From positions 96,001-160,000 of the forward strand of contig JBMNJT010000008.1 of the NCBI GenBank assembly GCA_050951805.1: DNA of 64,000 nucleotides, read 5' to 3'. Within the stretch, counting starts at the first letter, position 1. Every line of letters begins with the position of its first letter. Below the pieces are notes generated by a model. The model did no database searches, was not told where the DNA came from, and was given only the letters and a program-made list of their open reading frames with translations. The stretch is from Bacillota bacterium (lineage in GTDB: Bacteria > Bacillota > DTU025). Shown in pieces: positions 1-13,298 of the stretch. The position numbers were made by a program, and so were the translations under genes.

Positions 1-1
1 G

Positions 2-1363
2 GTGCTGATATTCACTGAGTTCGTGGCCACCCAGGAGATGCTTTGTCAGTTCCTAATCGCCCGAGGCTTTCAAGTAGCCTGCCTTAATGGTTCAATGGAC
101 ATGGAAGAAAGGCAGCACGCTCAGCAGATGTTCGCTGATAGCGCCAGAATTCTTGTATCCACAGATGCTGGCGGAGAAGGCCTGAACTTGCAGTTTTGTC
201 ATGTAGTAATAAACTATGATATTCCATGGAATCCGATGCGTTTAGAACAACGTATCGGGCGAGTAGACCGCATAGGGCAGACCAACGTTGTGCGCGCGAT
301 CAACTTCGTGTTGGAGGATTCAGTTGATCATCGCGTGCTTGAGGTCCTAGAAGACAAGCTGGCTGTCATTTACGATGAATTCGGTGTTGATAAGACTGGA
401 GATGTTCTTGACTCAGCTCAAGCCGCCAACATCTTTGAGCAACTCTACATTGAGGCAGTTCTCAATCCCGAATCCGTTCAAATGTCAGTGGATAAAGCAG
501 TATCCCTCATAGGCACACATGCTCTTGAGAGGAGAGAGAATGCACAGTTGCTGGTGTCTACAGAGGATCTGGATCCGGGTGTAGCGCGGCGCATGATGCT
601 ACATCCCTTGCCGGACTGGGTTGAGCGTATGACCGTGGCATTCGTAAGGTCACACGGGGGTGGCGCAGAAGCGAACAACGGCAGATGGCATATATTCTGG
701 CCTGATGGTTCAGAGGATGTGGACGTCGTATTCACCCGCAGGGATGCAGAGAAGTTTTCGACGGCGCGCCGCTTAACTTTGGAGAACTCACGAGTCCGTG
801 GCTTAGTAATGAACCTGCCACGGTTTGCGCGCGGTCAACCAATCCCGTGCATAGCTTTACCAGGCATTCCAAGGGCAGTGAGCGGGTTTTGGTCTCTTTG
901 GTCCATATCTGTTCAGGCAGAACAGTGGAATCAGCGACGGATCATTCCACTGTTTCTGCATGATGATGGGAGAGTGCTTGGCCCAACAGCAAGGCGGGTC
1001 TGGGATGCTCTATTGTCAGAAACCCCCGTGATAATGGGCCAAATCAGTGGTGCCGATGCGTGCAGCGCTTTCGACCGTCTTTCCGAAGAGGCCGAATCTC
1101 ATGGGAAACCTCTGTATCAGGAGCTTGCAGCAGAGCATGAAGCATGCATGGCCCAGGAACGAGAGAAGGCCAAGTATGCCTTTGAAGCCCGGCGTCGAGC
1201 TATCAAACGTGTTGGACTGGCTGAGGTTCGCCAATATCGACTGGCACAGCTTGGCCGGGAGGAGCAAAGGTGCGAAGCAGAGATGGCACCAAGAACCAGC
1301 ATAATGCCTGAATTGGCGCCCCTGCTCATGATTCATGTCGAGGCAGGTGTTGACGATGAGTAG
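2..1363 (+). CDS. SNF2-family helicase, C-terminal part (BrxHII-like, BREX type 3); truncated by window start
   Basis: Helicase C-terminal motifs LIFTEF, STDAGGEGLNLQ, NYDIPWNPMRLEQRIGRVDRIGQ; overlaps pglZ start by 8 bp. Confidence 0.85.
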   Translation: MLIFTEFVATQEMLCQFLIARGFQVACLNGSMDMEERQHAQQMFADSARILVSTDAGGEGLNLQFCHVVINYDIPWNPMRLEQRIGRVDRIGQTNVVRAINFVLEDSVDHRVLEVLEDKLAVIYDEFGVDKTGDVLDSAQAANIFEQLYIEAVLNPESVQMSVDKAVSLIGTHALERRENAQLLVSTEDLDPGVARRMMLHPLPDWVERMTVAFVRSHGGGAEANNGRWHIFWPDGSEDVDVVFTRRDAEKFSTARRLTLENSRVRGLVMNLPRFARGQPIPCIALPGIPRAVSGFWSLWSISVQAEQWNQRRIIPLFLHDDGRVLGPTARRVWDALLSETPVIMGQISGADACSAFDRLSEEAESHGKPLYQELAAEHEACMAQEREKAKYAFEARRRAIKRVGLAEVRQYRLAQLGREEQRCEAEMAPRTSIMPELAPLLMIHVEAGVDDE

Positions 1364-3362
1364 CTGGCGGGAAGCGATCTTACGTGAGCTTTCACTGAAT
1401 CTTTCAAGATTATATGTTGTGGCAGATCCTGACGGGCTCTTGTTTGAAGAGGGTTTGGCACAAGAAATTCGTGACATGGGTTTTGACATACTTCCGTTCG
1501 ATGATCCTGTAGTATTCAGATATGTCTATGAAAGTCGGTACCGCAATAACCCAATCTACTCAGACACAGTTGGCAGGGGTCTCATTGTGCGTTGTGCCTC
1601 CCATGATTTCTCCGAGCTGCCCTATGATATTCTCAAATCAGGGCGTAATCTTTCATTCGGCCTTGCGGAGTTGTTCCCCAATCTCAGCTATCCTGTAGTA
1701 GCCGAACTGGATTTGGGCGATCTTGAAATTCTCTATCGGAAGCAGGAGCAGTACAAACCTCAGATGCTAGGCGATAATGCGACTAGGGATTTCGTTCTTG
1801 AACACGTTTTCCGAATAGCGCCGGAAAGGGTAAGTGATCCTGCCGATTTGCTATTGGTATTGCTGCGCCGGCATTACGGAGGCATCCAGTTTCCTGTAAG
1901 CTTGGATCAGTATCTCATTGATAGACTTTCCGAAAAAGAGCAGCTAAGGGATTGGCCTCTTGAGCAAATAATCCCTGATGGACAGGCCTTTCTCGGATTT
2001 CTCCAGGAAAGATGGTCGATCTTTCTTGATCACATTGCTGGGCTCGATGGCGAATTTGTGAATGAACCTGCTTCATCCCTAACACTGAAGTTTAGTGGTC
2101 CTGCCTATCTTCCTCTTGATGACGACAGAATTTGTCCTTACATTAAGAGCCTGTTCCTAGATGGTCTTTTGAAGCCAATCGAATACGATAAGTGGGAACT
2201 CGTAACCGATCGTTGGGTTGAAGTGGGGGTAAAGACTGATCAGGAAGCGTATCATATACGTCGTTTGGGTGGCCTAATCGAGTCTGCTTTACACAGCGTT
2301 CCATCTTCAGAGAGTGCCTATCGTGATTGGTTAGCGTATGCTCGTCGGTGGGCGGAGCTGACTGTACTGAGCATGGAGATCCGTGATAAGCTGGATGCTG
2401 AGTTGTTGGACCAACTACAACATTTGTATGCTAGAGTTGATTCTGAGTTTCTTGAGTGGGTGTGTAACCGATATGCCGGGTTACACAACTGCCCAGCATT
2501 TCCGCCCGTTATGGTTCACCATATTCCACGTTTCTTGGCTATGCAGATGGAAAATGGTGTATGTGACAAGGTTGCTCTCATAGTAGTTGATGGCATGGCC
2601 CTAGATCAATGGCTAGTAATCAAAGACACACTGGAAAAGCAGCGACCGGGGTATAATCTCGAAGAAAATGACGTTTTTGCCTGGATTCCTACACTTACAT
2701 CGGTGTCAAGACAAGCCATTTTTGCGGGAAAACCCCCGTTGTATTTCCCCGATAGCCTTCTCTCTACCAACGAAGACAAGGCGCACTGGGTTCGTTTTTG
2801 GGCAGGCTGCGGTGTGGCCAAGAACAGGGTGGCTTACGAGAGAGGATTGGGCCATGACGACCTTGAGTTGGTACGCGAGATAGCGTCTAACCCCGCGATT
2901 CGCGTGATTGGCCTAGTAATAAATACAGTAGACCAGATCATGCACGGAATGATGCTGGGATCAGCAGGGATGCATAACCAAGTGCGGCAGTGGGCCCGTG
3001 AAGAGTATTTGGCCAACCTCATCGATATCCTAATCGATCATGGTTTTCATGTGGCGCTTACCTCAGACCATGGGAACATAGAAGCGACAGGATGCGGCAG
3101 TCCTTCAGAACGGGCCATTGCAGACCTAAGGGGTGAGCGTGTGCGAGTCTATCCAGATTGCAGGTTGAGAGATCTTGTGAAAGAGAAGTTCCCAGACGCT
3201 ATTGAATGGTCTCCCATGGGCCTGCACGATGATTTCCTACCTCTTATTGCTCCGGATCGTTCTGCATTTGTAAACCGGGATAAGAGGATCGTAACGCATG
3301 GCGGCATATCAATTGAAGAGCTGATCGTGCCATTTGTCCAGATTCAAAGGAGGACATCATGA
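1356..3362 (+). CDS. pglZ: BREX PglZ alkaline-phosphatase-fold protein
   Basis: Motifs IVVDGMALDQW, FAWIPTLTSVSRQAIFAG, TSDHGN, THGGISIEELIVP; ATG 1356 overlaps the helicase stop. Confidence 0.9.
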   Translation: MSSWREAILRELSLNLSRLYVVADPDGLLFEEGLAQEIRDMGFDILPFDDPVVFRYVYESRYRNNPIYSDTVGRGLIVRCASHDFSELPYDILKSGRNLSFGLAELFPNLSYPVVAELDLGDLEILYRKQEQYKPQMLGDNATRDFVLEHVFRIAPERVSDPADLLLVLLRRHYGGIQFPVSLDQYLIDRLSEKEQLRDWPLEQIIPDGQAFLGFLQERWSIFLDHIAGLDGEFVNEPASSLTLKFSGPAYLPLDDDRICPYIKSLFLDGLLKPIEYDKWELVTDRWVEVGVKTDQEAYHIRRLGGLIESALHSVPSSESAYRDWLAYARRWAELTVLSMEIRDKLDAELLDQLQHLYARVDSEFLEWVCNRYAGLHNCPAFPPVMVHHIPRFLAMQMENGVCDKVALIVVDGMALDQWLVIKDTLEKQRPGYNLEENDVFAWIPTLTSVSRQAIFAGKPPLYFPDSLLSTNEDKAHWVRFWAGCGVAKNRVAYERGLGHDDLELVREIASNPAIRVIGLVINTVDQIMHGMMLGSAGMHNQVRQWAREEYLANLIDILIDHGFHVALTSDHGNIEATGCGSPSERAIADLRGERVRVYPDCRLRDLVKEKFPDAIEWSPMGLHDDFLPLIAPDRSAFVNRDKRIVTHGGISIEELIVPFVQIQRRTS

Positions 3363-4141
3363 CGGATCGTTTTTCACAGATAGGATTCAGCAGACATATA
3401 TGCCTTGAATGGCTTGAGCATACTGCCAATCTCGTCTTAGCTGGAAACGATGAGACGGCGATCTCGGGAATTCTCGACGAGTCTCTCCGAGATCAAGTTG
3501 CTGTCGGAAGCAGCGCCAAACGTAATGCTCGTGACAAGACAGTGACCATACTTATGAAAACATGGGCTAATGTGCAGCCAGAGCTCGGATCCTTTCGAGA
3601 TAGGGGGCTCAGGATGATCAAGGAGACCCCTATGGAGCAACATGTTGCAATCCACTATGGCATGGCCATGGCGGCCTACCCATTTCTGAAGACTGTTGCC
3701 GAGAACACAGGCAGGCTTTTACGCCTTCAGGATACTGTGAAGTTGAGTCAGATTCAGCGCAGGTTGAGGGATGTTTACGGTGACCGGGAGACTGTTTCCC
3801 GATCTACCCGGTATGCAATTAGTTCTCTTGTTGACTGGGGTATATTATCGAAAGGCGCATCTCCAGGGTTCTATGAGTCAGGGCAGGTTTGCCGCGTAGA
3901 CAACGAAGAAATGGCTATCTGGCTTATGGAGGCATTGCTTCATGCAACGGAAAATGGAAGGGCACCTATGTCCACGACTCTGAACTCACCTGCCCTGTTT
4001 CCGTTTTCTTTGACCTACGTGCCATCGGATCTTGTTCCAAAATACAGTCAGGTTGATGTCGTGCGCCATGGGTTGGATCAGAAATTGCTTGTACTTCGAA
4101 CCGATTTGGACAGTCTTGCCGCTAGGAACCGCAAAAATTGA
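3359..4141 (+). CDS. BrxA-like protein (last gene of BREX type 3-like operon)
   Basis: ATGA overlap with pglZ; 260 aa; position after helicase-pglZ matches type 3 BREX order; family inferred from context and segments such as HYGMAMAAYPF/GRLLRLQ. Confidence 0.6.
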   Translation: MTDRFSQIGFSRHICLEWLEHTANLVLAGNDETAISGILDESLRDQVAVGSSAKRNARDKTVTILMKTWANVQPELGSFRDRGLRMIKETPMEQHVAIHYGMAMAAYPFLKTVAENTGRLLRLQDTVKLSQIQRRLRDVYGDRETVSRSTRYAISSLVDWGILSKGASPGFYESGQVCRVDNEEMAIWLMEALLHATENGRAPMSTTLNSPALFPFSLTYVPSDLVPKYSQVDVVRHGLDQKLLVLRTDLDSLAARNRKN

Positions 4142-4344
4142 CGTATGGATTTCAGTCGCTTTGTTCTTGCCTTGTCTTTTTCATGCGATGGATGGCGATC
4201 CGTGCAGGCAATCTATTGGGCGCAGTAGATTCGGGGAAAAGATGGGAACAGTGGAGGAGTGCTCCGGTAATTGGAGAAGATGAAGGGTAGTGTATGGTTA
4301 TTCATCTTGTAGCTAATGAATGTGAGTAATCGACAATATGGGGG

Positions 4345-4684
4345 ATGCATATGCAGCTTTATCAAGGCATGAGTGAACAATTCGTGACTATGGTAAGGGA
4401 GAACCGGGTGGATTACGTCCTAACGGAGAGTTATAAGAGTCAGCTCGGTTCGAATCCGTCTCCGTCTGAAGTGAGGTCATGGCGGAACTCTCTTAAGGAA
4501 GTGGCCTGGACACTCGAGGATTCTGGATTTACGGATCTCGGCATGATAGTTGAGTACAGGCTTCCACAGACGAGTAGGCGCCTCGATGTGATGATGATGG
4601 GCCGGGACACCTATTCAAAAGATAATGCTGTTATTGTTGAGCTCAAACAGTGGGATACTGCTCGGGCTACCGATATAGATGACA
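4345..4684 (+). pseudogene. 5' part (PD-(D/E)xK nuclease-like domain) of IS-interrupted DUF2075 nuclease-helicase gene
   Basis: IVEYRLP..RRLDVMM..VIVELKQW motif; joins in frame with 6342..7870 after IS removal; start may be 4351. Confidence 0.8.
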
Positions 4685-6332
4685 AGTCACGTCCGATATA
4701 ATGCTGTAAAAAGGCCTTCGCCCTGTTGTGGTGGGTGGGGATGGGTATGGAAAGGCCACTGGTTCTCTAGTAGAATTGGAGCATGAGCGAACCAATTATC
4801 TACTAGGAGGAGAACCAATGGCTACATATCAGATTAGCATATCCGAAGAGCAATTGCATGGACTTTTTGATGGGGACCGTGGGTTAGCAAACCTTCTTGA
4901 ATCAGTGCTTAACCAGGTGCTTGAAGCGCAGGCTACGGAGCAGCTTGGGGCAGAGCCTTATCAGAGAACTGAGGAGCGGACCGGGTATCGCAATGGGTCC
5001 AGAAGGCGACCCTTGGTGACGCGGGTGGGCTCAATTACCCTTGAGGTCCCCCAGTTTAGAAAGGGCAAGCTGGATACGGACCTTTTTGAAAGGTACCAGC
5101 GCAGCGAACGAGCCCTGATTGCCACGCTTGTTGAAATGGTAGTGAACGGAGTGTCTACTCGTAAGATTCGAAAGATAACCCGCGAGCTATGTGGTGTGGA
5201 CATCTCGGAATCCACAGTCTCAGACATGGTGAAGACGCTGGACCCTGCAGTGCGCGAATGGCGTGAACGTCCTCTCGACAAAGGGCCATATCCATTTTTA
5301 TTGGTTGATGCGATAGTGATCAAGATCCGCAAGGGAGGCAGGGTCTGGAATCACAGTGCGCTGATCGCCGTAGGCGTAAACTCTGAAGGCATGCGCGAGA
5401 TTATCGGGTTCATGCTTGCAGACAGCGAGAAGGAAGACTCATGGCGCGAGTTCTTCAACTCTTTAAAGGCAAGGGGCCTTTCGGGCGTAGACCTTGTGGT
5501 GTCAGATGACCATGGAGGACTAGTCAATGCTGTAGCAGTAGAGTTTCAGGGGGCATCATGGCAGCGTTGCCAGACTCATTTCACTAAGAACATCCTGGAT
5601 GCGTGCCCCAAGGCGCTTAAGGATGAACTCCACTCCCGACTGCGCCTCATGTTTGAAGCGCCCGATATGGATACTGCCAGAGAATTGCTTGGTGGCATCA
5701 TCGCTGATTTCGCAGCTCGGGCCCCTAAGGCAATCGACAGGCTTGAAGAAGGATTTGACGATGCAATGGCTGTAATGGTTCTACCCCAATGCCTCCGGAA
5801 AAGGCTGAGAACAACCAACTGTGTAGAGAGGCTCAACGAAGAGATCCGAAGGCGGGAACGGGTGATAAGGATATTCCCAAACGGTGATTCGGCCATCAGG
5901 CTGCTTGGTGCTGTGCTTATCGAAAGGGATGAGGATTGGTCTACCGGTCGCAAGTATCTCAACATGGCCGAGTATTGGCAATGGAAGCAGGCTTGTGAAT
6001 CGGGCCAGGCAGAATCCTCGCTCCATGTCGCTTGAGGGTTAGCGCTTCTCGTTACAATCCAAGCTGATGGCTATCGCTGACTCCGGCGCAGACCGAGAGG
6101 AAAGCAGAACCTAGCTAGAGATAAATATCTTGGTCATGGACTAACTTGCCTCGAGGCCGAGCCGGAGTACAATACTCATTCGGCTTGGATAGAAAGTGCA
6201 AACCAGTCGAATGCGTCCACTATACCAAGGAAGAGGAATTGGATGAAATTCGTCGGCAGTCCCGACTAGCTACCTATACAAACATGCTCCAGTAGAGGAG
6301 AACTGTTTTTACAGCACATTTCGGACTTGATC
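4685..6332 (+). mobile_element. IS256-family insertion sequence (1648 bp)
   Basis: Imperfect terminal IRs AGTCACGTCCGATATAATGCTGTAAAAA (4685-4712) and revcomp GATCAAGTCCGAAATGTGCTGTAAAAA (6306-6332); flanking direct repeat TAGATGACA at 4676-4684 and 6333-6341. Confidence 0.92.
4818..6035 (+). CDS. IS256 (Mutator) family DDE transposase
   Basis: GYRNG, NGVSTRK, VDA, VVSDDHGGL, WQRCQTHF, RTTNCVERLNEEIRRR motifs; RBS AGGAGG before ATG 4818. Confidence 0.95.
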   Translation: MATYQISISEEQLHGLFDGDRGLANLLESVLNQVLEAQATEQLGAEPYQRTEERTGYRNGSRRRPLVTRVGSITLEVPQFRKGKLDTDLFERYQRSERALIATLVEMVVNGVSTRKIRKITRELCGVDISESTVSDMVKTLDPAVREWRERPLDKGPYPFLLVDAIVIKIRKGGRVWNHSALIAVGVNSEGMREIIGFMLADSEKEDSWREFFNSLKARGLSGVDLVVSDDHGGLVNAVAVEFQGASWQRCQTHFTKNILDACPKALKDELHSRLRLMFEAPDMDTARELLGGIIADFAARAPKAIDRLEEGFDDAMAVMVLPQCLRKRLRTTNCVERLNEEIRRRERVIRIFPNGDSAIRLLGAVLIERDEDWSTGRKYLNMAEYWQWKQACESGQAESSLHVA

Positions 6333-6341
6333 TAGATGACA

Positions 6342-7870
6342 CAGTCATGGTTGGGCCCGTGTATCATCTGCATCCATCGCGGCAAGCAGGTAACTATGCT
6401 GAGTATCTTAGGGATTGCCATACTGCCTTCTACGCATCTCCCGACAACACAAATCCTATCCAACTCTCTGCATGCAGCTTCCTACACAATGCCCATCGCC
6501 AAGTATGTGGCGACCTTTATAGCCCCATGTACTCTGATACATTGACCGAATATCCATTATTCACTGGAGATCAAAGATACGATTTCCGGGGTTTTCTTGA
6601 AGAACGTGTTTCAGAGGGCGGGGGTGATGAGGTGCTGAACAGGTTCCTTACCAGCAGATATCGTCCTAGCAAGAAACTATTGGACAATGCTGCGAGAATG
6701 ATAGAAGGCAATCCCGTGTTTACTCTCCTAGATGAACAGCAACTTGTCTTCAACATAGTGGTGGCCTCGGTTAAGAAACTGCAGATCACAGAGCACAAGT
6801 CAGTTGTAATAGTTACGGGTGGACCTGGCACCGGAAAAAGCGTAATAGCTGTACGTCTTCTAGCTGCCTTGGCAAGGGAAAATGTGAATGTAGTTCATTG
6901 TACGGGCTCGGCTGCATTCACTACTAACCTCAGGGCTCAGGTTGGAAACAGACCAGCTGCCCTGTTCAAGTATTTCAACTCGTTCATGCAAACAGGCTAC
7001 AACGAGATAGATGTCCTGATTGCAGATGAAGCTCATCGTATTCGTGAGACCAGTAACAGCCGATTTACCCGGAAGGATCAACGATCAAACAAACCTCAGG
7101 TTTACGAGCTGATAGATGCGGCGAAAGTGAGTGTTTTCTTCTTGGACGATCATCAAGTTGTGCGACCGGATGAGATTGGCACCCCAGACTTGATCGAGAA
7201 GGCAGCCCGTGAGCGTGGGGCCAGAGTATTCAAGGTCGATCTGAACGCACAATTCAGATGCTCTGGTTCAGAAGCGTATATCGACTGGCTCAACTATGTT
7301 TTTGGAGTTGGGGGCAGAGAAGATCTGTCTTGGCTCTTAGAGAGGGAATACGAGTTCGAAATAACGTCGTCTCCCGAAGAACTTGAGGAGATGATTCGTG
7401 GTCGTGCTAAACAGGGCAACACCGCCCGCATAGTGGCGGGTTTCTGTTGGCCATGGTCAAATCCTCTTCCAGACGGCTCTTTGGTGCCTGACGTGGCCAT
7501 AGGAGAGTGGTCTAGGCCATGGAACAGAAAACGAACAGGCTCGCCGTCGCCAAAGAATGACCCATATACAATCTGGGCAACCCGGGACGAGGGACTAGAT
7601 CAGATAGGTTGTATCTATTCCGCACAAGGATTTGAGTTTGACTACTGTGGTGTCATATTCGGCACTGACTTGGTTTGGGATGACTCAACTGGTTCATGGG
7701 TTGGCTTGAAGCAGAACAGCTGCGATGCTGTTGTGAAAAGAAGTGCTGATTTTACGCAGTTGATGCTTCATACCTATAGGGTCCTTCTATCCCGCGGCAT
7801 GAAAGGCACCTACGTATACTTCCTCGACCAGGCAACCCGAAACCATTTTGAGGAGGCTCTTTTCGGTTGA
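6342..7870 (+). pseudogene. 3' part (SF1-like DUF2075/Schlafen group 3-type helicase domain) of IS-interrupted gene
   Basis: Walker A GGPGTGKS, Walker B IADEAHR, QFRCSGS, YSAQGFEFDY, YRVLLSRG; frame intact. Confidence 0.85.
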
Positions 7871-8238
7871 TGGACAAACCGGTTACAACAGCACATGCCC
7901 GAAGCGAACTAATGCAGTTGCTGCTCGTGTTCCGCGATGAAAGAGAGTGGGGCCAGTTCCATACCCCCAAGAACCTAGCGATAGCGCTTGTAGCGGAGGC
8001 GTCGGAGCTGCTTTCGCTCTTTCAATGGACCAAAGATGCGGAGCTCGATGAGAGATGTCGGGAAAAGCGGACCGAAATAGAACAGGAGATCGCCGATATC
8101 TACATATACCTTCTATTCCTCGCCAACGAACTTGGAATTGACCTTGATGAAGTGGCTGCAGAGAAGATGAAGCTCAACGCCGAGCATTATCCCGCTAACA
8201 AGGCAAAGGGCAACGCCAGGAAATACACGGAGCTTTAG
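7870..8238 (+). CDS. MazG-like nucleotide pyrophosphohydrolase
   Basis: FRDEREWGQFHTPKNLA, EASELL...EQEIADI (ExxE..ExxD); TGATG overlap with the helicase stop. Confidence 0.9.
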   Translation: MDKPVTTAHARSELMQLLLVFRDEREWGQFHTPKNLAIALVAEASELLSLFQWTKDAELDERCREKRTEIEQEIADIYIYLLFLANELGIDLDEVAAEKMKLNAEHYPANKAKGNARKYTEL

Positions 8239-8400
8239 CAATGCACGGCTCGATGCAGCTGCTGCCTTCAGTCGCCAGGGGGTGTTAACGCTGGTCCACG
8301 GGCATGGAAAGATCCCTGGTAGGCTTCATCGAACAAGAAGATCAGGTCTTCGCCTGCGTAAAGGGGCTGTCCGGTTAGCGCACGGCTGACATAATGCAGG

Positions 8401-8640
8401 ATGTGGAGCGGACGCCGCTACACCGGAACACAGAAGTGTCTGTTGTACCCGTCAGAGCTTGCGCCTATTACCATAGGCGATTGCCCGGTGGGATCCTCAG
8501 GTCGCGGAAGACCGCTGGTATCTGGACATTGCCATGCTCACAGCCACTGGGCGAAGGAGACTGCCACCTCACTGCTCGCCCTGTACGAAAGCCTCAGTAT
8601 TATCCGCGAAGAGGGACTTGAGGCCCGTTGTGCAAGGCAC
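8401..8640 (+). pseudogene. Internal fragment of class V aminotransferase (alanine-glyoxylate/serine-pyruvate type)
   Basis: (DAA)YTGTQKCL..LAPIT PLP-lysine region and LYESLSIIREEGLEARCARH; frameshift just before YTG; no intact start or end. Confidence 0.6.
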
Positions 8641-8763
8641 GAGCTTCAATTAACAAGACCTCATCCAACCCGGATCAGGGCTCGCTGCCGCCTACCAAAA
8701 TGGAATCACGTCGCGTCCTGCCAGCAAAACTAGAACCAGCGTGCATATACTTGCTCGATGTTA

Positions 8764-8792
8764 TTGACATATGCACAAAATGCATGTAGTAT
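8764..8792 (+). promoter_or_regulatory. sigma70/SigA-type promoter for DUF134-mrp
   Basis: TTGACA-17 bp-TAGTAT. Confidence 0.6.
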
Positions 8793-8843
8793 CCTTGTGG
8801 AATGTGCGCGATTTCACAAATGCATCTTAAGAGGGGCGAGAAC

Positions 8844-9428
8844 ATGGGCAGACCTCCCAAGGTGAGATGTGTGGAGATGATCCCTCCTGTAAGAACCTTT
8901 TGCCCGTGTGGCAACTGGCCGGAATGCCGTGCTCATCGTGGGGCAGATGAACGAATCGAGATGACAGTGGATGAGATGGAAGCTATTCGCCTCAAGGATC
9001 TGGAAGGCTGCGAACAGACAGAGTGTGCAGACAGAATGAATATCTCGAGAGGCACATTCCAGAGGATACTCTCGTCTGCCCGCTGGAAAGTGGCGAAGGC
9101 TCTCACAGAAGGCTTGATCTTGCAGATATCCGGCGGTGAATACTGCCTGGCCCAATCGACCATCATCTGTCTCGACTGTGGGCATGCTTGGCCTGTTTGT
9201 CGCCCAAACGCCGATAGCAAGGATGAATGTGAAGAGACCGTAACTGCCGAGGACGGCACAGTATCGGGTTCATGTCCTGAGTGCAGAGGGACCAACCTTG
9301 TCGAGAAAGGCGGAGAATGCTCGGGGCCTGGCGGTAGGGAAGATTGTCCGCGCAGAAGAGAGCGTGGACGCCGTGGTTGCTCGCATCGCTCAGGCGCCGA
9401 AGAGTCAGCAGCCAAAAGCACCGACTGA
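8844..9428 (+). CDS. DUF134 family HTH protein with C-terminal Zn-ribbon
   Basis: MGRPPKVR, DEMEAIRLKDLEG, MNISRGTFQRILSSARWKVAKAL, CLDC...CPEC. Confidence 0.85.
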   Translation: MGRPPKVRCVEMIPPVRTFCPCGNWPECRAHRGADERIEMTVDEMEAIRLKDLEGCEQTECADRMNISRGTFQRILSSARWKVAKALTEGLILQISGGEYCLAQSTIICLDCGHAWPVCRPNADSKDECEETVTAEDGTVSGSCPECRGTNLVEKGGECSGPGGREDCPRRRERGRRGCSHRSGAEESAAKSTD

Positions 9429-9534
9429 TCGACATTGCTCGATCTACGGAAGCGGTGATAGTGGCTGAAGTATTGGTTGTGCTGCCCCACGAGGGTGGGT
9501 ATACCGAAACTAAAGACGCAAGAAGGACGGAAGA

Positions 9535-10320
9535 ATGGAAGAATACGAGCAAAACGCGCTTTCGAGCACGCGTCATGTCATTGGAGTAATGAGCGGAAAG
9601 GGTGGAGTGGGCAAGTCGTCGGTAACGGCTCTTACCGCGGTCGCGCTGGCCCGAATGGGATACAAAGTAGGCGTAATGGACGCAGACATTACCGGCCCTA
9701 GCATACCCAAGATGTTCGGTGTTCATGGCAAACTTGATTCTGCGGAGACAGGGCTCTTTCCGGCGCAAACAGAGAGGCTGGGGATTAGGATAGTCTCCCT
9801 CAACTTGCTTTTGGACAGGGAAGACAGGCCAGTAGTATGGCGCGGTCCTCTTCTTGCCGGAGCAGTAAGGCAGTTTTGGACAGACGTTAGCTGGGGTGAT
9901 CTCGATTTCATGATAATCGACCTTCCACCGGGAACGGGCGACATTCCGCTTTCAGTCATGCAGTCGATACCGGTCGAGGGGCTGATAACGGTTTCATCCC
10001 CGCAGGACGTAGCGGCTCTCGTCGTTCGCAAAGCGGTGAACATGGCCGAGATGATGGACAAACCCATAATCGGGCTTATCGAGAACATGAGCTACATCAA
10101 GTGCCCTGGATGCGGCGAAACGATGTATCCCTTTGGGAAGCCGGCAGGCGCTGGATTTGCCTCTGAAATGGGAATTCCGTTCATCGGGGAAATGCCTATC
10201 GATCCCGCTCTATCTGAAGCAGCCGATAGGGGCGAAATCGAGATGTATGAGAGTCCAATCATGCAGGGGATCGCCGAAGCTGTTGTACGGCACGTACAAG
10301 CGAGTGCGCAAGAAGAGTAG
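9535..10320 (+). CDS. mrp: Mrp/NBP35 Fe-S cluster carrier ATPase
   Basis: SGKGGVGKS, DADITGPS, VVWRGP, DLPPGTGD, ENMSYIKCPGC. Confidence 0.92.
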   Translation: MEEYEQNALSSTRHVIGVMSGKGGVGKSSVTALTAVALARMGYKVGVMDADITGPSIPKMFGVHGKLDSAETGLFPAQTERLGIRIVSLNLLLDREDRPVVWRGPLLAGAVRQFWTDVSWGDLDFMIIDLPPGTGDIPLSVMQSIPVEGLITVSSPQDVAALVVRKAVNMAEMMDKPIIGLIENMSYIKCPGCGETMYPFGKPAGAGFASEMGIPFIGEMPIDPALSEAADRGEIEMYESPIMQGIAEAVVRHVQASAQEE

Positions 10321-10418
10321 CGCGTCGGCGCTGCGCGAGAGAGATTCACACAAGTTTCTCTTGAAAAGGGAGAGTGAAGCAGGGCGGTCTGCAAAGATAG
10401 CCCTGCTTCTTGGATCAA

Positions 10419-13298
10419 TCAAAATATGCTTGCAACCTTTCCAGCTTCGCCCGACAGAATCTGGTTCGGATTGGAAGGCGCCGATGTCCTGCCGTCCTTG
10501 AGAATGTAGGCTCGGTCCGCAACTGAAAGAGCGGCCTTCGCGTTCTGCTCCACCAGAAGAACCGCGGTTCCAGCCCGGTTTATCTCGGCAATGGCCTCCA
10601 TAACCCTTTCCACCATTATAGGTGCTAGCCCCATGGAGGGTTCATCCATGCATATGAGGCGGGGAGATGTGACGAGAGCCCTTGCAATGGCCAGCATCTG
10701 TTGTTCGCCCCCGGACAGGGTTCCGGCGAGCTGTGATCTCCTGTCTGCCAGGACAGGAAAGAGGGAGAGCGCTCGGTCGATGCCTTCCCGGGCCCCTTCC
10801 GGGTCTCCTAAGGCATCAGCCGCCACTTCCAGGTTCTCCATCACCGTGAGTTCCTGAAAGACCCTTCGTCCTTCCGGCACAACTCCCATGCCCATCCTGA
10901 TGATCTCGTTGGTTTCCCGTCCGTCTATCCGCTCGCCCATGAACCGGATCTCCCCCCGAGTGGGGCGGAGCCTTCCTGCAATAGTCTTTAGCAGGGTGCT
11001 CTTGCCTGCAGCGTTCACTCCTAAAAGCGCCACTGCTTCGCCGGGATTGACGTAGAGGTTTGCACCCTGCAGGACCACTGCGGGGCCGTATGATGAATTG
11101 ACATCTATCAGCTCGAGGAGGGGCGTGGGAAGCCCCGACGTAGCAGCTGACGACGTCGACATGGCATTCGATGCCAAGCTTTGAGCCGGCTTTCGATCTG
11201 GCGCCGCGGAACTGCCAAAGTAGGCGCGGATGACCTCCTGATCCTTTGCCACTTCGCTGCATGAACCTTCAGCTATCTTTTCGCCGTGGTCCAGAACAAT
11301 CACCCTATCGCACGCCGACGCGATCAGGTCCATGTGATGCTCGATAACGACGATGGTGTAGCCGCGGTCCCGAAGCGCCACGATCTCTCTCGCCATCGCC
11401 GCGATCTCCTCCGACGTCATCCCGGCGGCAGGTTCGTCGAGGAGGATGAACTTCGCACCTGTGGCCAGCGCTCGGGCCATCTCCACTCGGCGTTTGTCGG
11501 GGTATGAAAGCTCTGCAACGATGTCAGATTCCCGCTTCTCGAGGCCGCAATCCATGTCCGAAAGGATGTGCCTTACGCACAAGATGTCCTCCTCTTCCTT
11601 GCGAACATGGGACTTTGTCCTGAAAAGCACCTCCCAAAGGTGTGCGTCTTGCTTCAGGTGGCGTCCGGCGAGGACGTTCTCGAGGACGGTTTGTGTTTCA
11701 TAAAGCCTTATATTCTGAAACGTCCGCGCCGCTCCCATCGCTGCCACTTCGTGCGGGGATTTGCCTACGATCGATTGCCCGTACAGTCTGATGTCGCCCG
11801 CACTTGGGTTCGCAAGGCCTGTAATCAGGTTGAAAAGGGTCGTTTTACCCGCTCCGTTGGGACCGATTATCCCGAGGATTTCGCCGCGCTTGACCGTGAA
11901 ACTCACATCCGAAAGAGCCTGCACTCCCCCGAAACGGCAGCTTAACCCCGTAACCTCGAGAACTGTGGCTTGCCCTGGCGACGCCGATGTGCTCGCGCTG
12001 CGGATAGCTTCCGGCTCGCCGCCATTATCGGGTATGGGGCAGGATGAAGCAGACACGGCATCATCTGTTGTTCTTTCGGCAAGACCTGCGTTCGCATTTG
12101 TGCCCAGACATATACCTGGGCCAGGGTGTGCGCCATGTGCTCGGGTCGGGTCGACCCCGACCAGTCTTTCGCCTGTGGCGATCAAGCCTTGGGGGCGGAA
12201 GATCGCGAGCAGTACCAGGGCGAAGCCGTATATGAGCATCCGATAGACGCTGTATGCGCGAAGAACCTCGGGCAGCACCTGAAGAAGCAGCACTCCCAGC
12301 ATTATCCCTGGCACGCTTCGAGTCCCGCCCAGCACGAGCATGCAGTAGAGGGCGATGGTCTCGCTCATAGTGAAATTCTGAGGAAAGACCGCCCCCTGCC
12401 AGGAAGCAAAGAGTGCTCCGGCAAGTCCGGCGATTGCTGCAGCGCCTGCGAAGGCCGACACTCGGTATTTCCTCACGTTCACGCCCATGCATTCCGCGGC
12501 AGTCTCGTTCTCACGCAGCGCATTCCATGCCCGGCCCACCTTGGAACCTGCGAGCCTCGATACGCCTATCAGCACCGCCGCGGCGAAAATCCAGATGAGA
12601 ATGTATTGCGATTCCATTGACGCTAAAGACGAGCCGAAGATGTGCGGCGGATCTATTGCGACTATCCCGTTTGGGCCGCCTGTGATGTTGATAGGGCGAT
12701 CCATGTTGTTCAGGAGTATACGGACTATCTGGCCGAACCCCAAGGTAACCATAGCCAGGTAGTCACCGTGAAGACGAAGGGTCGGCAGGCTCACGGCAAA
12801 TGCCGCGATCACCGCCGCCGCCACAGATGCCGCGGCTGCCACGAAAAAGGGCATGTGTATCCCGAACTGGGGGGATGCGAGCAGCGCGTATACATATGCT
12901 CCGATCCCGTAGAATCCCGCATAGCCCAGATCGAGGAGGCCTGCCTGTCCCGCCACGATGGAAAGCCCCGCTGCCAGCATCAGGTATATGCCGACAGACC
13001 CTCCCGCACGCATCAGGTAGTAGTTCTTCGTTATCAAGGGGACGGGCAAGAGAACGGCATAGCCCAAGAAGACGAGGGCGCGCTCGATCGGGACGCGTCC
13101 GCTTTGCCACAGGCCCAACCGCTCCAAAAGTCCGATTCGAAGCCGTCCGCCGGCGAGATTGGGCCCATCGGCTGCCTTGGCGGAATTTGACGCCCGAGTG
13201 GCCGCTTCCGGTGCCACCTGCGCCTGCTCGGCTTCTGTTTGCCGGAGCGATGCGCTGTGGGGGTGCTTTTCAGTGGTATTCACGCATTCATTGGACAT
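10419..13298 (-). CDS. Fused Liv-type ABC permease (LivM) + two ATPase domains (LivG, LivF)
   Basis: LLDLGYAGFYGIG/DYLAMVTLGFG permease, then GPNGAGKT..LLDEPAAG and GVNAAGKS..LSGGEQQML..MDEPS in one 959-aa ORF. Confidence 0.88.
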   Translation of the reverse strand: MSNECVNTTEKHPHSASLRQTEAEQAQVAPEAATRASNSAKAADGPNLAGGRLRIGLLERLGLWQSGRVPIERALVFLGYAVLLPVPLITKNYYLMRAGGSVGIYLMLAAGLSIVAGQAGLLDLGYAGFYGIGAYVYALLASPQFGIHMPFFVAAAASVAAAVIAAFAVSLPTLRLHGDYLAMVTLGFGQIVRILLNNMDRPINITGGPNGIVAIDPPHIFGSSLASMESQYILIWIFAAAVLIGVSRLAGSKVGRAWNALRENETAAECMGVNVRKYRVSAFAGAAAIAGLAGALFASWQGAVFPQNFTMSETIALYCMLVLGGTRSVPGIMLGVLLLQVLPEVLRAYSVYRMLIYGFALVLLAIFRPQGLIATGERLVGVDPTRAHGAHPGPGICLGTNANAGLAERTTDDAVSASSCPIPDNGGEPEAIRSASTSASPGQATVLEVTGLSCRFGGVQALSDVSFTVKRGEILGIIGPNGAGKTTLFNLITGLANPSAGDIRLYGQSIVGKSPHEVAAMGAARTFQNIRLYETQTVLENVLAGRHLKQDAHLWEVLFRTKSHVRKEEEDILCVRHILSDMDCGLEKRESDIVAELSYPDKRRVEMARALATGAKFILLDEPAAGMTSEEIAAMAREIVALRDRGYTIVVIEHHMDLIASACDRVIVLDHGEKIAEGSCSEVAKDQEVIRAYFGSSAAPDRKPAQSLASNAMSTSSAATSGLPTPLLELIDVNSSYGPAVVLQGANLYVNPGEAVALLGVNAAGKSTLLKTIAGRLRPTRGEIRFMGERIDGRETNEIIRMGMGVVPEGRRVFQELTVMENLEVAADALGDPEGAREGIDRALSLFPVLADRRSQLAGTLSGGEQQMLAIARALVTSPRLICMDEPSMGLAPIMVERVMEAIAEINRAGTAVLLVEQNAKAALSVADRAYILKDGRTSAPSNPNQILSGEAGKVASIF

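Follow-up and report, generated by a model that had tools for sequence, protein, structure and literature searches.

We analysed a stretch of 64,000 nucleotides from a Bacillota bacterium (GTDB lineage Bacteria; Bacillota; DTU025; assembly GCA_050951805.1, contig JBMNJT010000008.1, positions 96,001 to 160,000), hereafter the window, in which two adjacent plus-strand genes for a nuclease-helicase and a MazG-like pyrophosphatase follow a BREX type 3 operon. The nuclease-helicase gene is in two pieces. Its 5' fragment (codons 1–113) occupies positions 4345–4684 and its 3' fragment (codons 114–622 and the stop) positions 6342–7870, with an IS256-family insertion sequence (IS) of 1648 bp lodged between them on the same strand (4685–6332). 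As it stands, the window contains broken open reading frames (ORFs) of 118 codons (4345–4701, where the gene runs into the IS and stops at 4701) and 507 codons (6347–7870), with a transposase ORF (4728–6035) in between. Joined in frame, the fragments give 340 + 1529 = 1869 nt, or 622 codons and a stop, reading ...ATDIDD-TVMVGP... across the predicted junction. Both align end to end, with no junction gap, to an intact homologue of 638 residues (P0001), at 91% identity for the 5' fragment, which matches its N-terminus, and 93% for the 3' fragment. The empty insertion site also occurs in nature: two metagenome contigs (L082 and L083) correspond to window positions 1–4689 and 6329–12000 at 99.6–99.7% identity and are without the IS, and the first contains an unbroken ORF of 622 residues directly behind brxA (L082:7659–9527) with the junction exactly as predicted. 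The single 622-codon gene proposed in an earlier note on this DNA is therefore borne out by the in-frame join, by the homologue and by a natural allele.

The inserted element is flanked by a 9-bp target-site duplication (TAGATGACA; left copy 4676–4684, right copy 6333–6341), found by direct repeat search; a duplication of 8–9 bp is usual for IS256 elements. Its terminal inverted repeats are imperfect apart from a perfect 11-nt core (4702–4712 and 6306–6316), and its plus-strand transposase matches PF00872 (E 2.2e-124) and the NCBIfam model NF033543 (364.8 bits against a cut-off of 150). The true transposase start is likely the in-frame ATG at 4818, which has GGAGGAG just before it. Five full-length copies of the element are present in the genome at 94–100% identity, the others lying on contigs C2, C3 and C8 (two at 99–100% and two at 94–96%, plus partial ones). 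Transposase score, inverted repeats, duplication and copy number all agree with assignment to the IS256 family, and the element is active in this genome. Its insertion into the nuclease-helicase gene is recent and inactivates the module in this genome, because it cuts all four nuclease catalytic residues off from the helicase; the BREX-3 genes and the MazG ORF remain intact. The earlier note had taken the module as live, a view that does not survive the knock-out. A natural knock-out alongside an intact allele at 99.7% identity also shows the speed at which such modules get lost.

Sequence and structural modelling together identify the reconstructed protein as a putative N-terminal PD-(D/E)xK nuclease followed by a helical linker and a helicase of superfamily 1B (SF1B) belonging to PF09848, Schlafen group 3. 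The match to PF09848 (SLFN-g3_helicase, formerly DUF2075) spans model positions 1–354 of 354 and the C-terminal two thirds of the protein (293.3 bits against a cut-off of 24, E 3.7e-87; 294.7 bits in a genome-wide search). The 5' fragment retains all of the catalytic residues of the nuclease (E70, D81, E99 and K101), while the 3' fragment, to which the PF09848 match belongs, carries the remainder of the nuclease-fold domain, the linker and the helicase with its Walker A (GGPGTGKS), DEAH and ...LLSRGMKG motifs. E70, D81 and E99-L-K101 (E99-x-K101) are unchanged in 56/56 aligned homologues, and the motif is invariant both in members with a MazG partner and in members without one. In the predicted structure, residues 1–267 (predicted local distance difference test, pLDDT, 92.8) form a restriction-endonuclease-type core with the catalytic residues borne by predicted beta strands 66–72, 79–87 and 93–101. 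The best structural neighbours of this N-terminal model are nuclease domains, namely those of VC1899 (Z 8.6), Can2 (8.0), Cdn1 (7.5), Upx (7.2) and McrC (6.6); such middling Z scores, 8.6 at best, support the modelled fold class and not any specific nuclease family. Foldseek returned no match to the N-terminal model at E ≤ 0.001 and found NucS at E 2.9e-3. For the full-length model (pLDDT 87.3), it found RecD, SLFN11, RecD2, Dna2, Dda and Upf1 at E 1e-10 to 4e-7, and a profile search of solved structures gave no close relative, the best being SLFN11 at E 0.0012. The nuclease core is followed by an invariant H-P-S-x-Q...Y stretch, which we take to resemble the QxxxY motif of RecB/Cas4 nucleases.

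The family is large, with at least 6824 proteins at E ≤ 0.001 among 8000 candidates scored and a typical length of ~620 residues, and its members come from many phyla of bacteria and archaea. Neither the nuclease-helicase nor its MazG partner has an NCBIfam family. Some longer members of ~800–850 residues (P0056, P0057 and P0071; also L104:9480–10094) end in an S24 peptidase tail of the LexA/UmuD type (PF00717), which suggests switching by RecA filaments; this tail is absent from the nuclease-helicase of the window.

The second gene (7870–8238, plus strand) encodes a MazG-like, DCTPP1-type all-alpha NTP pyrophosphatase (PF12643, 62.2 bits against a cut-off of 27). Its ORF of 123 codons spans 7867–8238, and the helicase stop overlaps the MazG ATG in a TGATG at 7868–7872; translational coupling of the two genes is seen in the window and at two further loci (L183 and L184). 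The protein aligns nearly end to end with an archaeal pyrophosphatase (PDB 4qgp, E 2.2e-24) and with mouse DCTPP1, or RS21-C6 (2a3q and 6sqw, E 2e-22), and no PADLOC model matches it at E ≤ 0.01. The metal-binding ExxE...ExxD tetrad (E44, E47, E74 and D77) and K100 are invariant in 53/53 partner MazGs, and this conservation marks the partner as an enzyme maintained by selection and not as a protein that only binds. Several readings made from the letters alone thus hold for the pair: the E..D..ELK motif is the invariant catalytic set of a modelled nuclease fold, the helicase is a full SF1-type enzyme with SF1B structural matches, and the stop/start overlap with a MazG-like gene is present.

The generality of the pairing was assessed in two independent samples, 80 genome loci (79 evaluable) and 80 metagenome loci (51 evaluable), with a MazG within 150 bp counting as paired. 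Among the genome loci, 38/79 are paired, three have a MazG further off (0.7–4.9 kb), 38 have none and one was not evaluable; the paired MazGs lie upstream on the same strand in 35 cases, downstream on the same strand in two and downstream on the opposite strand in one. The metagenome loci gave 25/51 paired (15 upstream and 10 downstream), one with MazG further off, 25 with none and 29 not evaluable. Both gene orders are represented, in many bacterial and archaeal phyla, and the closest relatives (58–74% identity) mostly share the order of the window, helicase then MazG. On viral contigs, five of seven full-length relatives have a MazG within ~1 kb. A search of 401 genomes of the window's phylum found the family in seven, a count that may be too low because three candidates per genome were scored, and six of these seven have a MazG within ~1.1 kb, one of the six with a different DUF2075 architecture. 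The single other genome of the same genus contains no match to the family. When 763 neighbours were grouped into 661 clusters, MazG was the only widely shared neighbour. The two genes are indeed conserved as a pair, as had been proposed, and the counts show a pairing that is real, facultative and independent of BREX: MazG is an accessory, non-obligatory partner.

Other arrangements were seen around members of the family. In the second largest neighbour cluster, the protein is a DUF2075 paralogue, which Streptomyces-type members have beside them in place of MazG. Ten actinomycete loci (Streptomyces and Kitasatospora; L044–L081) have no MazG and carry a second PF09848 protein of ~700 residues one or two genes off, and this paralogue pair takes the place of the MazG pairing. 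At L181 (G098:C10), a 553-residue protein with ResIII and PF09848 matches, which is without the N-terminal domain of the family, has a MazG directly downstream and UPF0175 and DUF3990 genes nearby. The MazG beside one DUF2075 gene in L185 (3398–3709; G046:C29) has an internal TAA stop and may be a decaying partner gene. We also considered MazG-helicase fusions, of which five metagenome loci at first appeared to be examples; closer reading resolved these into separate overlapping ORFs, and no fusion was seen.

The partner was also followed outside the pair. Within the phylum, the MazG family is matched in 43/401 genomes, and the genes around its stand-alone members encode GNAT, HAD and NUDIX enzymes, DNA polymerase III delta, ribosomal protein S20 and sigma factors. 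A dedicated, pair-specific MazG subfamily was considered and rejected, since stand-alone MazGs score equally on a profile of the partners and interleave with them on the tree. Mapped onto a maximum-likelihood tree of 73 MazGs, paired and stand-alone status requires seven changes (at least four of them forced by well-supported branches), against 17.1 when shuffled. The MazG of the window clusters with those of the closest helicase relatives, and one stand-alone MazG from the window's taxonomic family is nested within its clade. The tree and the stand-alone loci together indicate that the pairing is old within several clades, yet has been gained or lost repeatedly, so that MazG is facultative.

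These data bear on two alternative roles for the partner. Overlapping genes and tight pairing, with toxin-antitoxin and abortive infection genes frequent nearby (AbiEi/AbiEii in L185, UPF0175 in L181), would be consistent with a toxin-antitoxin or abortive infection system in which MazG neutralises a toxic nuclease-helicase, and the earlier note had offered the antitoxin role as one option. Against this, the loci without any MazG are too many for a type II toxin-antitoxin pair, the gene order varies, MazG also stands alone, and the partner retains every catalytic residue of an enzyme. MazG is thus unlikely to be an antitoxin, and we hold the arrangement as a whole to be very improbable. Alternatively, MazG might be the effector, emptying the dCTP or dNTP pool upon infection, with the nuclease-helicase acting mainly as sensor or activator. 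The invariance of the catalytic tetrad and the translational coupling both suit such a role, and nucleotide depletion is an established defence strategy (dCTP deaminase, dGTPase); in the passages available on PUA-HAD systems, MazG replaces calcineurin-CE. However, MazG cannot be the sole effector because about half of the family functions without it, the nuclease motif is invariant whether MazG is there or not, and stand-alone MazGs are evidently tolerated as constitutive housekeeping enzymes. We regard this role of MazG as distinctly unlikely.

We next turn to the genomic setting. A PADLOC scan at E ≤ 1e-15 covered 281 of 388 neighbours, up to three genes on each side, in 57 of the 80 genome loci (L061–L081 lay outside the scan). 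Matches were obtained for 32/281 proteins in 24 loci, or in 22/57 loci once two with only generic ATPase/UvrD-type matches were dropped. The defence-type neighbours include Hachiman (L010), CBASS (L014), the Wadjet protein JetC (L027 and L055), a type IV methyl-directed enzyme (L031), PglW (L045), SoFic, an AbiE-like protein, a true PDC-S41 (L029) and several other PDC candidates. Around stand-alone MazGs, which served as the control, 1/75 neighbours in 1/19 loci matched (Fisher p = 0.006 for proteins and 0.008 for loci), an enrichment that we read as clear but not quantitative because the control is imperfect, covering two genes per side in one phylum against three in the test, and related loci are not independent. 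Five further loci of the same phylum gave a mixed picture: two have clear defence neighbours, AbiEi/AbiEii with a CapP-like protein (L185) and a type II-A retron (L187), a third matches PDC-S25 weakly, and in the remaining two nothing came up, bar a generic ATPase match (mad3) in one of them. The expectation that homologues lie near defence genes is therefore supported, in neighbourhoods that are highly variable. Two of these loci deserve description in their own right. In L187 (5357–7571; G332:C12), the retron (NDT 288 bits, reverse transcriptase 392 bits) lies immediately upstream of the MazG-DUF2075 pair, and in L029 (9942–11942), such a pair is immediately followed by the true PDC-S41 gene (905 bits), placing two related nuclease-helicases side by side.

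In the window itself, the setting is a BREX-3 island. The 3' part of brxHII, encoding the BREX SNF2-type helicase, lies at 2–1363 (PADLOC BrxHI|BrxHII PDLC02500, E 2.7e-192), the gene beginning before the window with a 5' part at L182:16568–17998. It is followed on the same plus strand by a type 3 pglZ at 1335–3362 (NCBIfam BREX_PglZ_3 NF033449, 764 bits against a cut-off of 250; PADLOC PglZ, E 2e-260) and by brxA, the last gene of the operon, at 3359–4141 (PADLOC BrxA PDLC02444, E 1.3e-91). The type 3 gene set (BrxF, BrxC, PglXI, BrxHII, PglZ of type 3 and BrxA) is complete in one operon. The 18 kb before the window hold, in order, an McrB-like ATPase and an McrC-like DUF2357/PD-(D/E)xK protein, then brxF, brxC and pglXI. 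The McrBC-like pair opens the island (L182:13–3784; the ATPase matches PDC-M26A at 180 bits) and lies ~18 kb from the broken module, which means that this strain has a type IV-like system as well. A PDC-S68 gene of 1218 residues with a RecD-like helicase region (L182:12898–16554, 1720 bits) is embedded in the operon between pglXI and brxHII. On the other side, the MazG gene is followed by ordinary genes (a DUF134 regulator, an Mrp/NUBPL ATPase and an ABC transporter), and the pair therefore forms the end of a defence island.

This arrangement raises the question of whether the pair is an accessory of BREX-3, comparable to the BrxU- or BrxL-like add-ons, as the earlier note had also entertained. 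The distance it gave of about 200 bp is correct, the brxA stop (4141) and the nuclease-helicase ATG (4345) being 203 bp apart on the same strand, and the position is shared with L082. A promoter scan of 4141–4345 gave no sigma-70-like match, which carries no weight either way. Beyond this locus, BREX parts were found within three genes in only 2/57 scanned loci (PglW in L045 and a BrxH fragment in L046), and tblastn with nine island proteins (BrxF, BrxC, PglXI, BrxH, PglZ, BrxA, PDC-S68 and the McrBC-like pair) found no match in the five same-phylum loci. The strain, moreover, retains BREX though the module is broken. The BREX link is local, not general, and a role as a BREX accessory appears extremely improbable.

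We read the locus as a mobile module of two genes, of the kind found in defence islands, knocked out here by a recent IS256 insertion, and give this reading a probability of about 60%; that the pair is a defence module seems to us probable to the same degree. Several findings weigh against it. About half of the nuclease-helicase family has no MazG on the stretch examined; the PADLOC 2.0 scores for Nhi, AbiO and PDC-S41 are weak (51, 48 and 57 bits); no PADLOC-type neighbour lies within three genes in 35/57 scanned loci; in G282, the closest whole-genome relative, 0/12 neighbours match defence models; the control has the shortcomings given above; paired and stand-alone MazGs interleave on the tree; and 19/20 of the strong stand-alone MazG loci of the phylum are in ordinary housekeeping contexts. 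Some of these points would favour housekeeping DNA repair combined with pool hygiene, in which the nuclease-helicase would handle damaged or stalled replication intermediates and MazG would clean dNTPs, with no role against phages. The mostly stand-alone, housekeeping life of the MazG family, with its single defence-type neighbour among 75, agrees with such a role, as do the many loci without a defence-type neighbour and the LexA-type S24 domain of some members, which points to a RecA/SOS signal. A repair function sits badly, however, with a very patchy distribution (seven of 401 phylum genomes and none in the other genome of the genus), with hugely variable neighbourhoods, with the enrichment of defence neighbours, with the disruption of the module by an IS in this strain and its survival in one that is 99.7% identical, and with the fact that Nhi and Nhi-like proteins of the same architecture are published anti-phage proteins. 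We consider repair unlikely. The two-gene defence system of the earlier note thus stands as regards the conserved pair, the defence-rich neighbourhoods and the nuclease and helicase assignments, whereas its BREX-accessory and antitoxin options are not supported and its novelty was overstated.

How a defence module of this kind might work is suggested by its parts, from which we infer substrate and target specificity. Powered by ATP, the helicase would load onto incoming DNA, most probably that of a phage, either in replication or bearing modified cytosines. From there the DNA would pass to the PD-(D/E)xK nuclease of the same protein, a course of action demonstrated for Nhi. MazG would hydrolyse dCTP-type nucleotides, above all 5-modified dCTPs. 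The outcome could be that the phage is starved of its special precursor, or that modified nucleotides from degraded phage DNA are kept out of the host chromosome, sparing the host as a target.

The emphasis on modified cytosine comes from the neighbours and from the literature. A protein of ~310 residues with an HNH half adjoins the pair in L002, L015, L023 and L025, and also in L073 by clustering. The HNH half matches structure 6yex (E 5.5e-14), reported as the EVE-HNH modification-dependent enzyme VcaM4I (PMC7897488); the N-terminal half has no Pfam or PDB match, so we do not name the protein EVE or SRA. In L035, MazG is immediately preceded on its own strand by genes for an EVE-domain McrB and an McrC, and L060 has genes of the same two BLAST clusters, its McrB-like gene matching PDC-M26A. 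The type IV methyl-directed enzyme of L031 and the McrBC-like pair of the window's own island are further neighbours linked to modification. Passages of published work report DUF2075 NTPases as neighbours of McaZI-group enzymes that depend on 5-methylcytosine or 5-hydroxymethylcytosine (PMC6765204), and loss of a phage DNA methylase as a means for phages to escape a validated Nhi-like protein (10.1101/2022.08.27.505566). DCTPP1, of all characterised enzymes the nearest to the partner, is described as breaking down abnormal cytosine triphosphates and as a modulator of 5-methyl-dCTP. It is possible, and we put it forward only tentatively, that MazG-DUF2075 is an immune system of two genes, as yet unnamed and widespread in bacteria and archaea, directed against phages with modified cytosines; in this tentative scheme, the nuclease-helicase would destroy modified or replicating phage DNA and its DCTPP1-like partner would destroy 5-substituted dCTPs. 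If so, the phage could not rebuild protected DNA and the host would not incorporate the debris, and the pair would be a prokaryotic counterpart of a Schlafen-type helicase paired with dCTP-pool sanitation. More broadly, DUF2075/Schlafen-type nuclease-helicase fusions are proven bacterial antivirals with relatives in human immunity; a conserved, translationally coupled dCTP-pyrophosphatase partner and recurrent modification-dependent restriction neighbours raise the idea that DNA degradation is tied to nucleotide-pool editing.

Comparison with known systems places the two proteins separately. On the side of the partner, MazG shares with mammalian DCTPP1 (RS21-C6) and archaeal 4qgp the ExxE...ExxD tetrad and a W..FH.P.NL stretch. 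DCTPP1 is a housekeeping enzyme that sanitises the pool, whereas the MazG of the window, likened to it by sequence, is coupled translationally to a nuclease-helicase. On the side of the helicase, Schlafen group 3 proteins (SLFN11 and SLFN14) have the same Pfam helicase, PF09848, and combine a nuclease and a helicase with an immune role. SLFN11 is among the top structural matches (E 1.6e-10), but sequence similarity to the window's protein is confined to the helicase; the N-terminal nuclease of Schlafens, whose substrates are tRNA/RNA, comes from another fold family.

Three models of bacterial defence proteins were also compared. AbiO, a lactococcal abortive infection protein (PDLC02350), shares the DUF2075-type P-loop region and scores 48 bits over the P-loop only; PF09848 is listed under it in the DefensePredictor supplement, and no MazG partner is described for it. 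PDC-S41, a single-gene PADLOC candidate with a model of 657 positions (PDLC05014), has the same layout, and its model aligns to the N-terminal domain and the C-terminus. The score, however, reaches 57.5 bits, split over two stretches, where the true member in L029 (9942–11942) has 905 bits; by sequence, the window's family is a sister to PDC-S41 and not the same family. Closest in plan are Nhi (SERP2475 of Staphylococcus epidermidis; Bari et al., 10.1101/776245) and the Nhi-like protein (Millman et al. 2022, 10.1101/2022.05.11.491447), which, in the passages available, join a PD-(D/E)xK nuclease and a DUF2075/PF09848 SF1 helicase in one polypeptide, are set in defence islands and have a helicase akin to Dda, Upf1 and Dna2. 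The Nhi model (PADLOC PDLC02372) covers the P-loop region of our protein (51.4 bits; residues 259–392 of 622, model positions 192–306 of 470), which is not a full-length match to the Nhi family; the protein falls in the Nhi/Nhi-like architecture class. The Nhi-like protein is itself described as having no sequence identity to Nhi (Millman et al. 2022), and our likeness to it rests on architecture. According to passages of a further study, it is sensitised by phage DNA methylation (10.1101/2022.08.27.505566), which fits the type IV neighbours of the present family. Nhi and the Nhi-like protein are described as single-gene systems, whereas half of the present family has a coupled MazG.

MazG itself has been proposed as a defence component elsewhere. 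DefensePredictor (PMC13092281) has it among unvalidated predicted defence domains, and the passages available name no DUF2075 helicase partner; overlap is possible, Figure 6F and the PDF supplement lying outside the comparison. The unvalidated PUA-HAD MazG variants (10.64898/2026.01.15.699771) have MazG proposed as a nucleotide-acting defence component, in passages that mention no DUF2075 helicase. Our literature search found no paper describing a DUF2075 or Schlafen-type helicase paired with MazG. The composition that the earlier note called undescribed is thus partly familiar and partly not: the nuclease-DUF2075 helicase fusion is the published Nhi/Nhi-like plan and a known anti-phage architecture, and what is new in the literature searched is its MazG partner.

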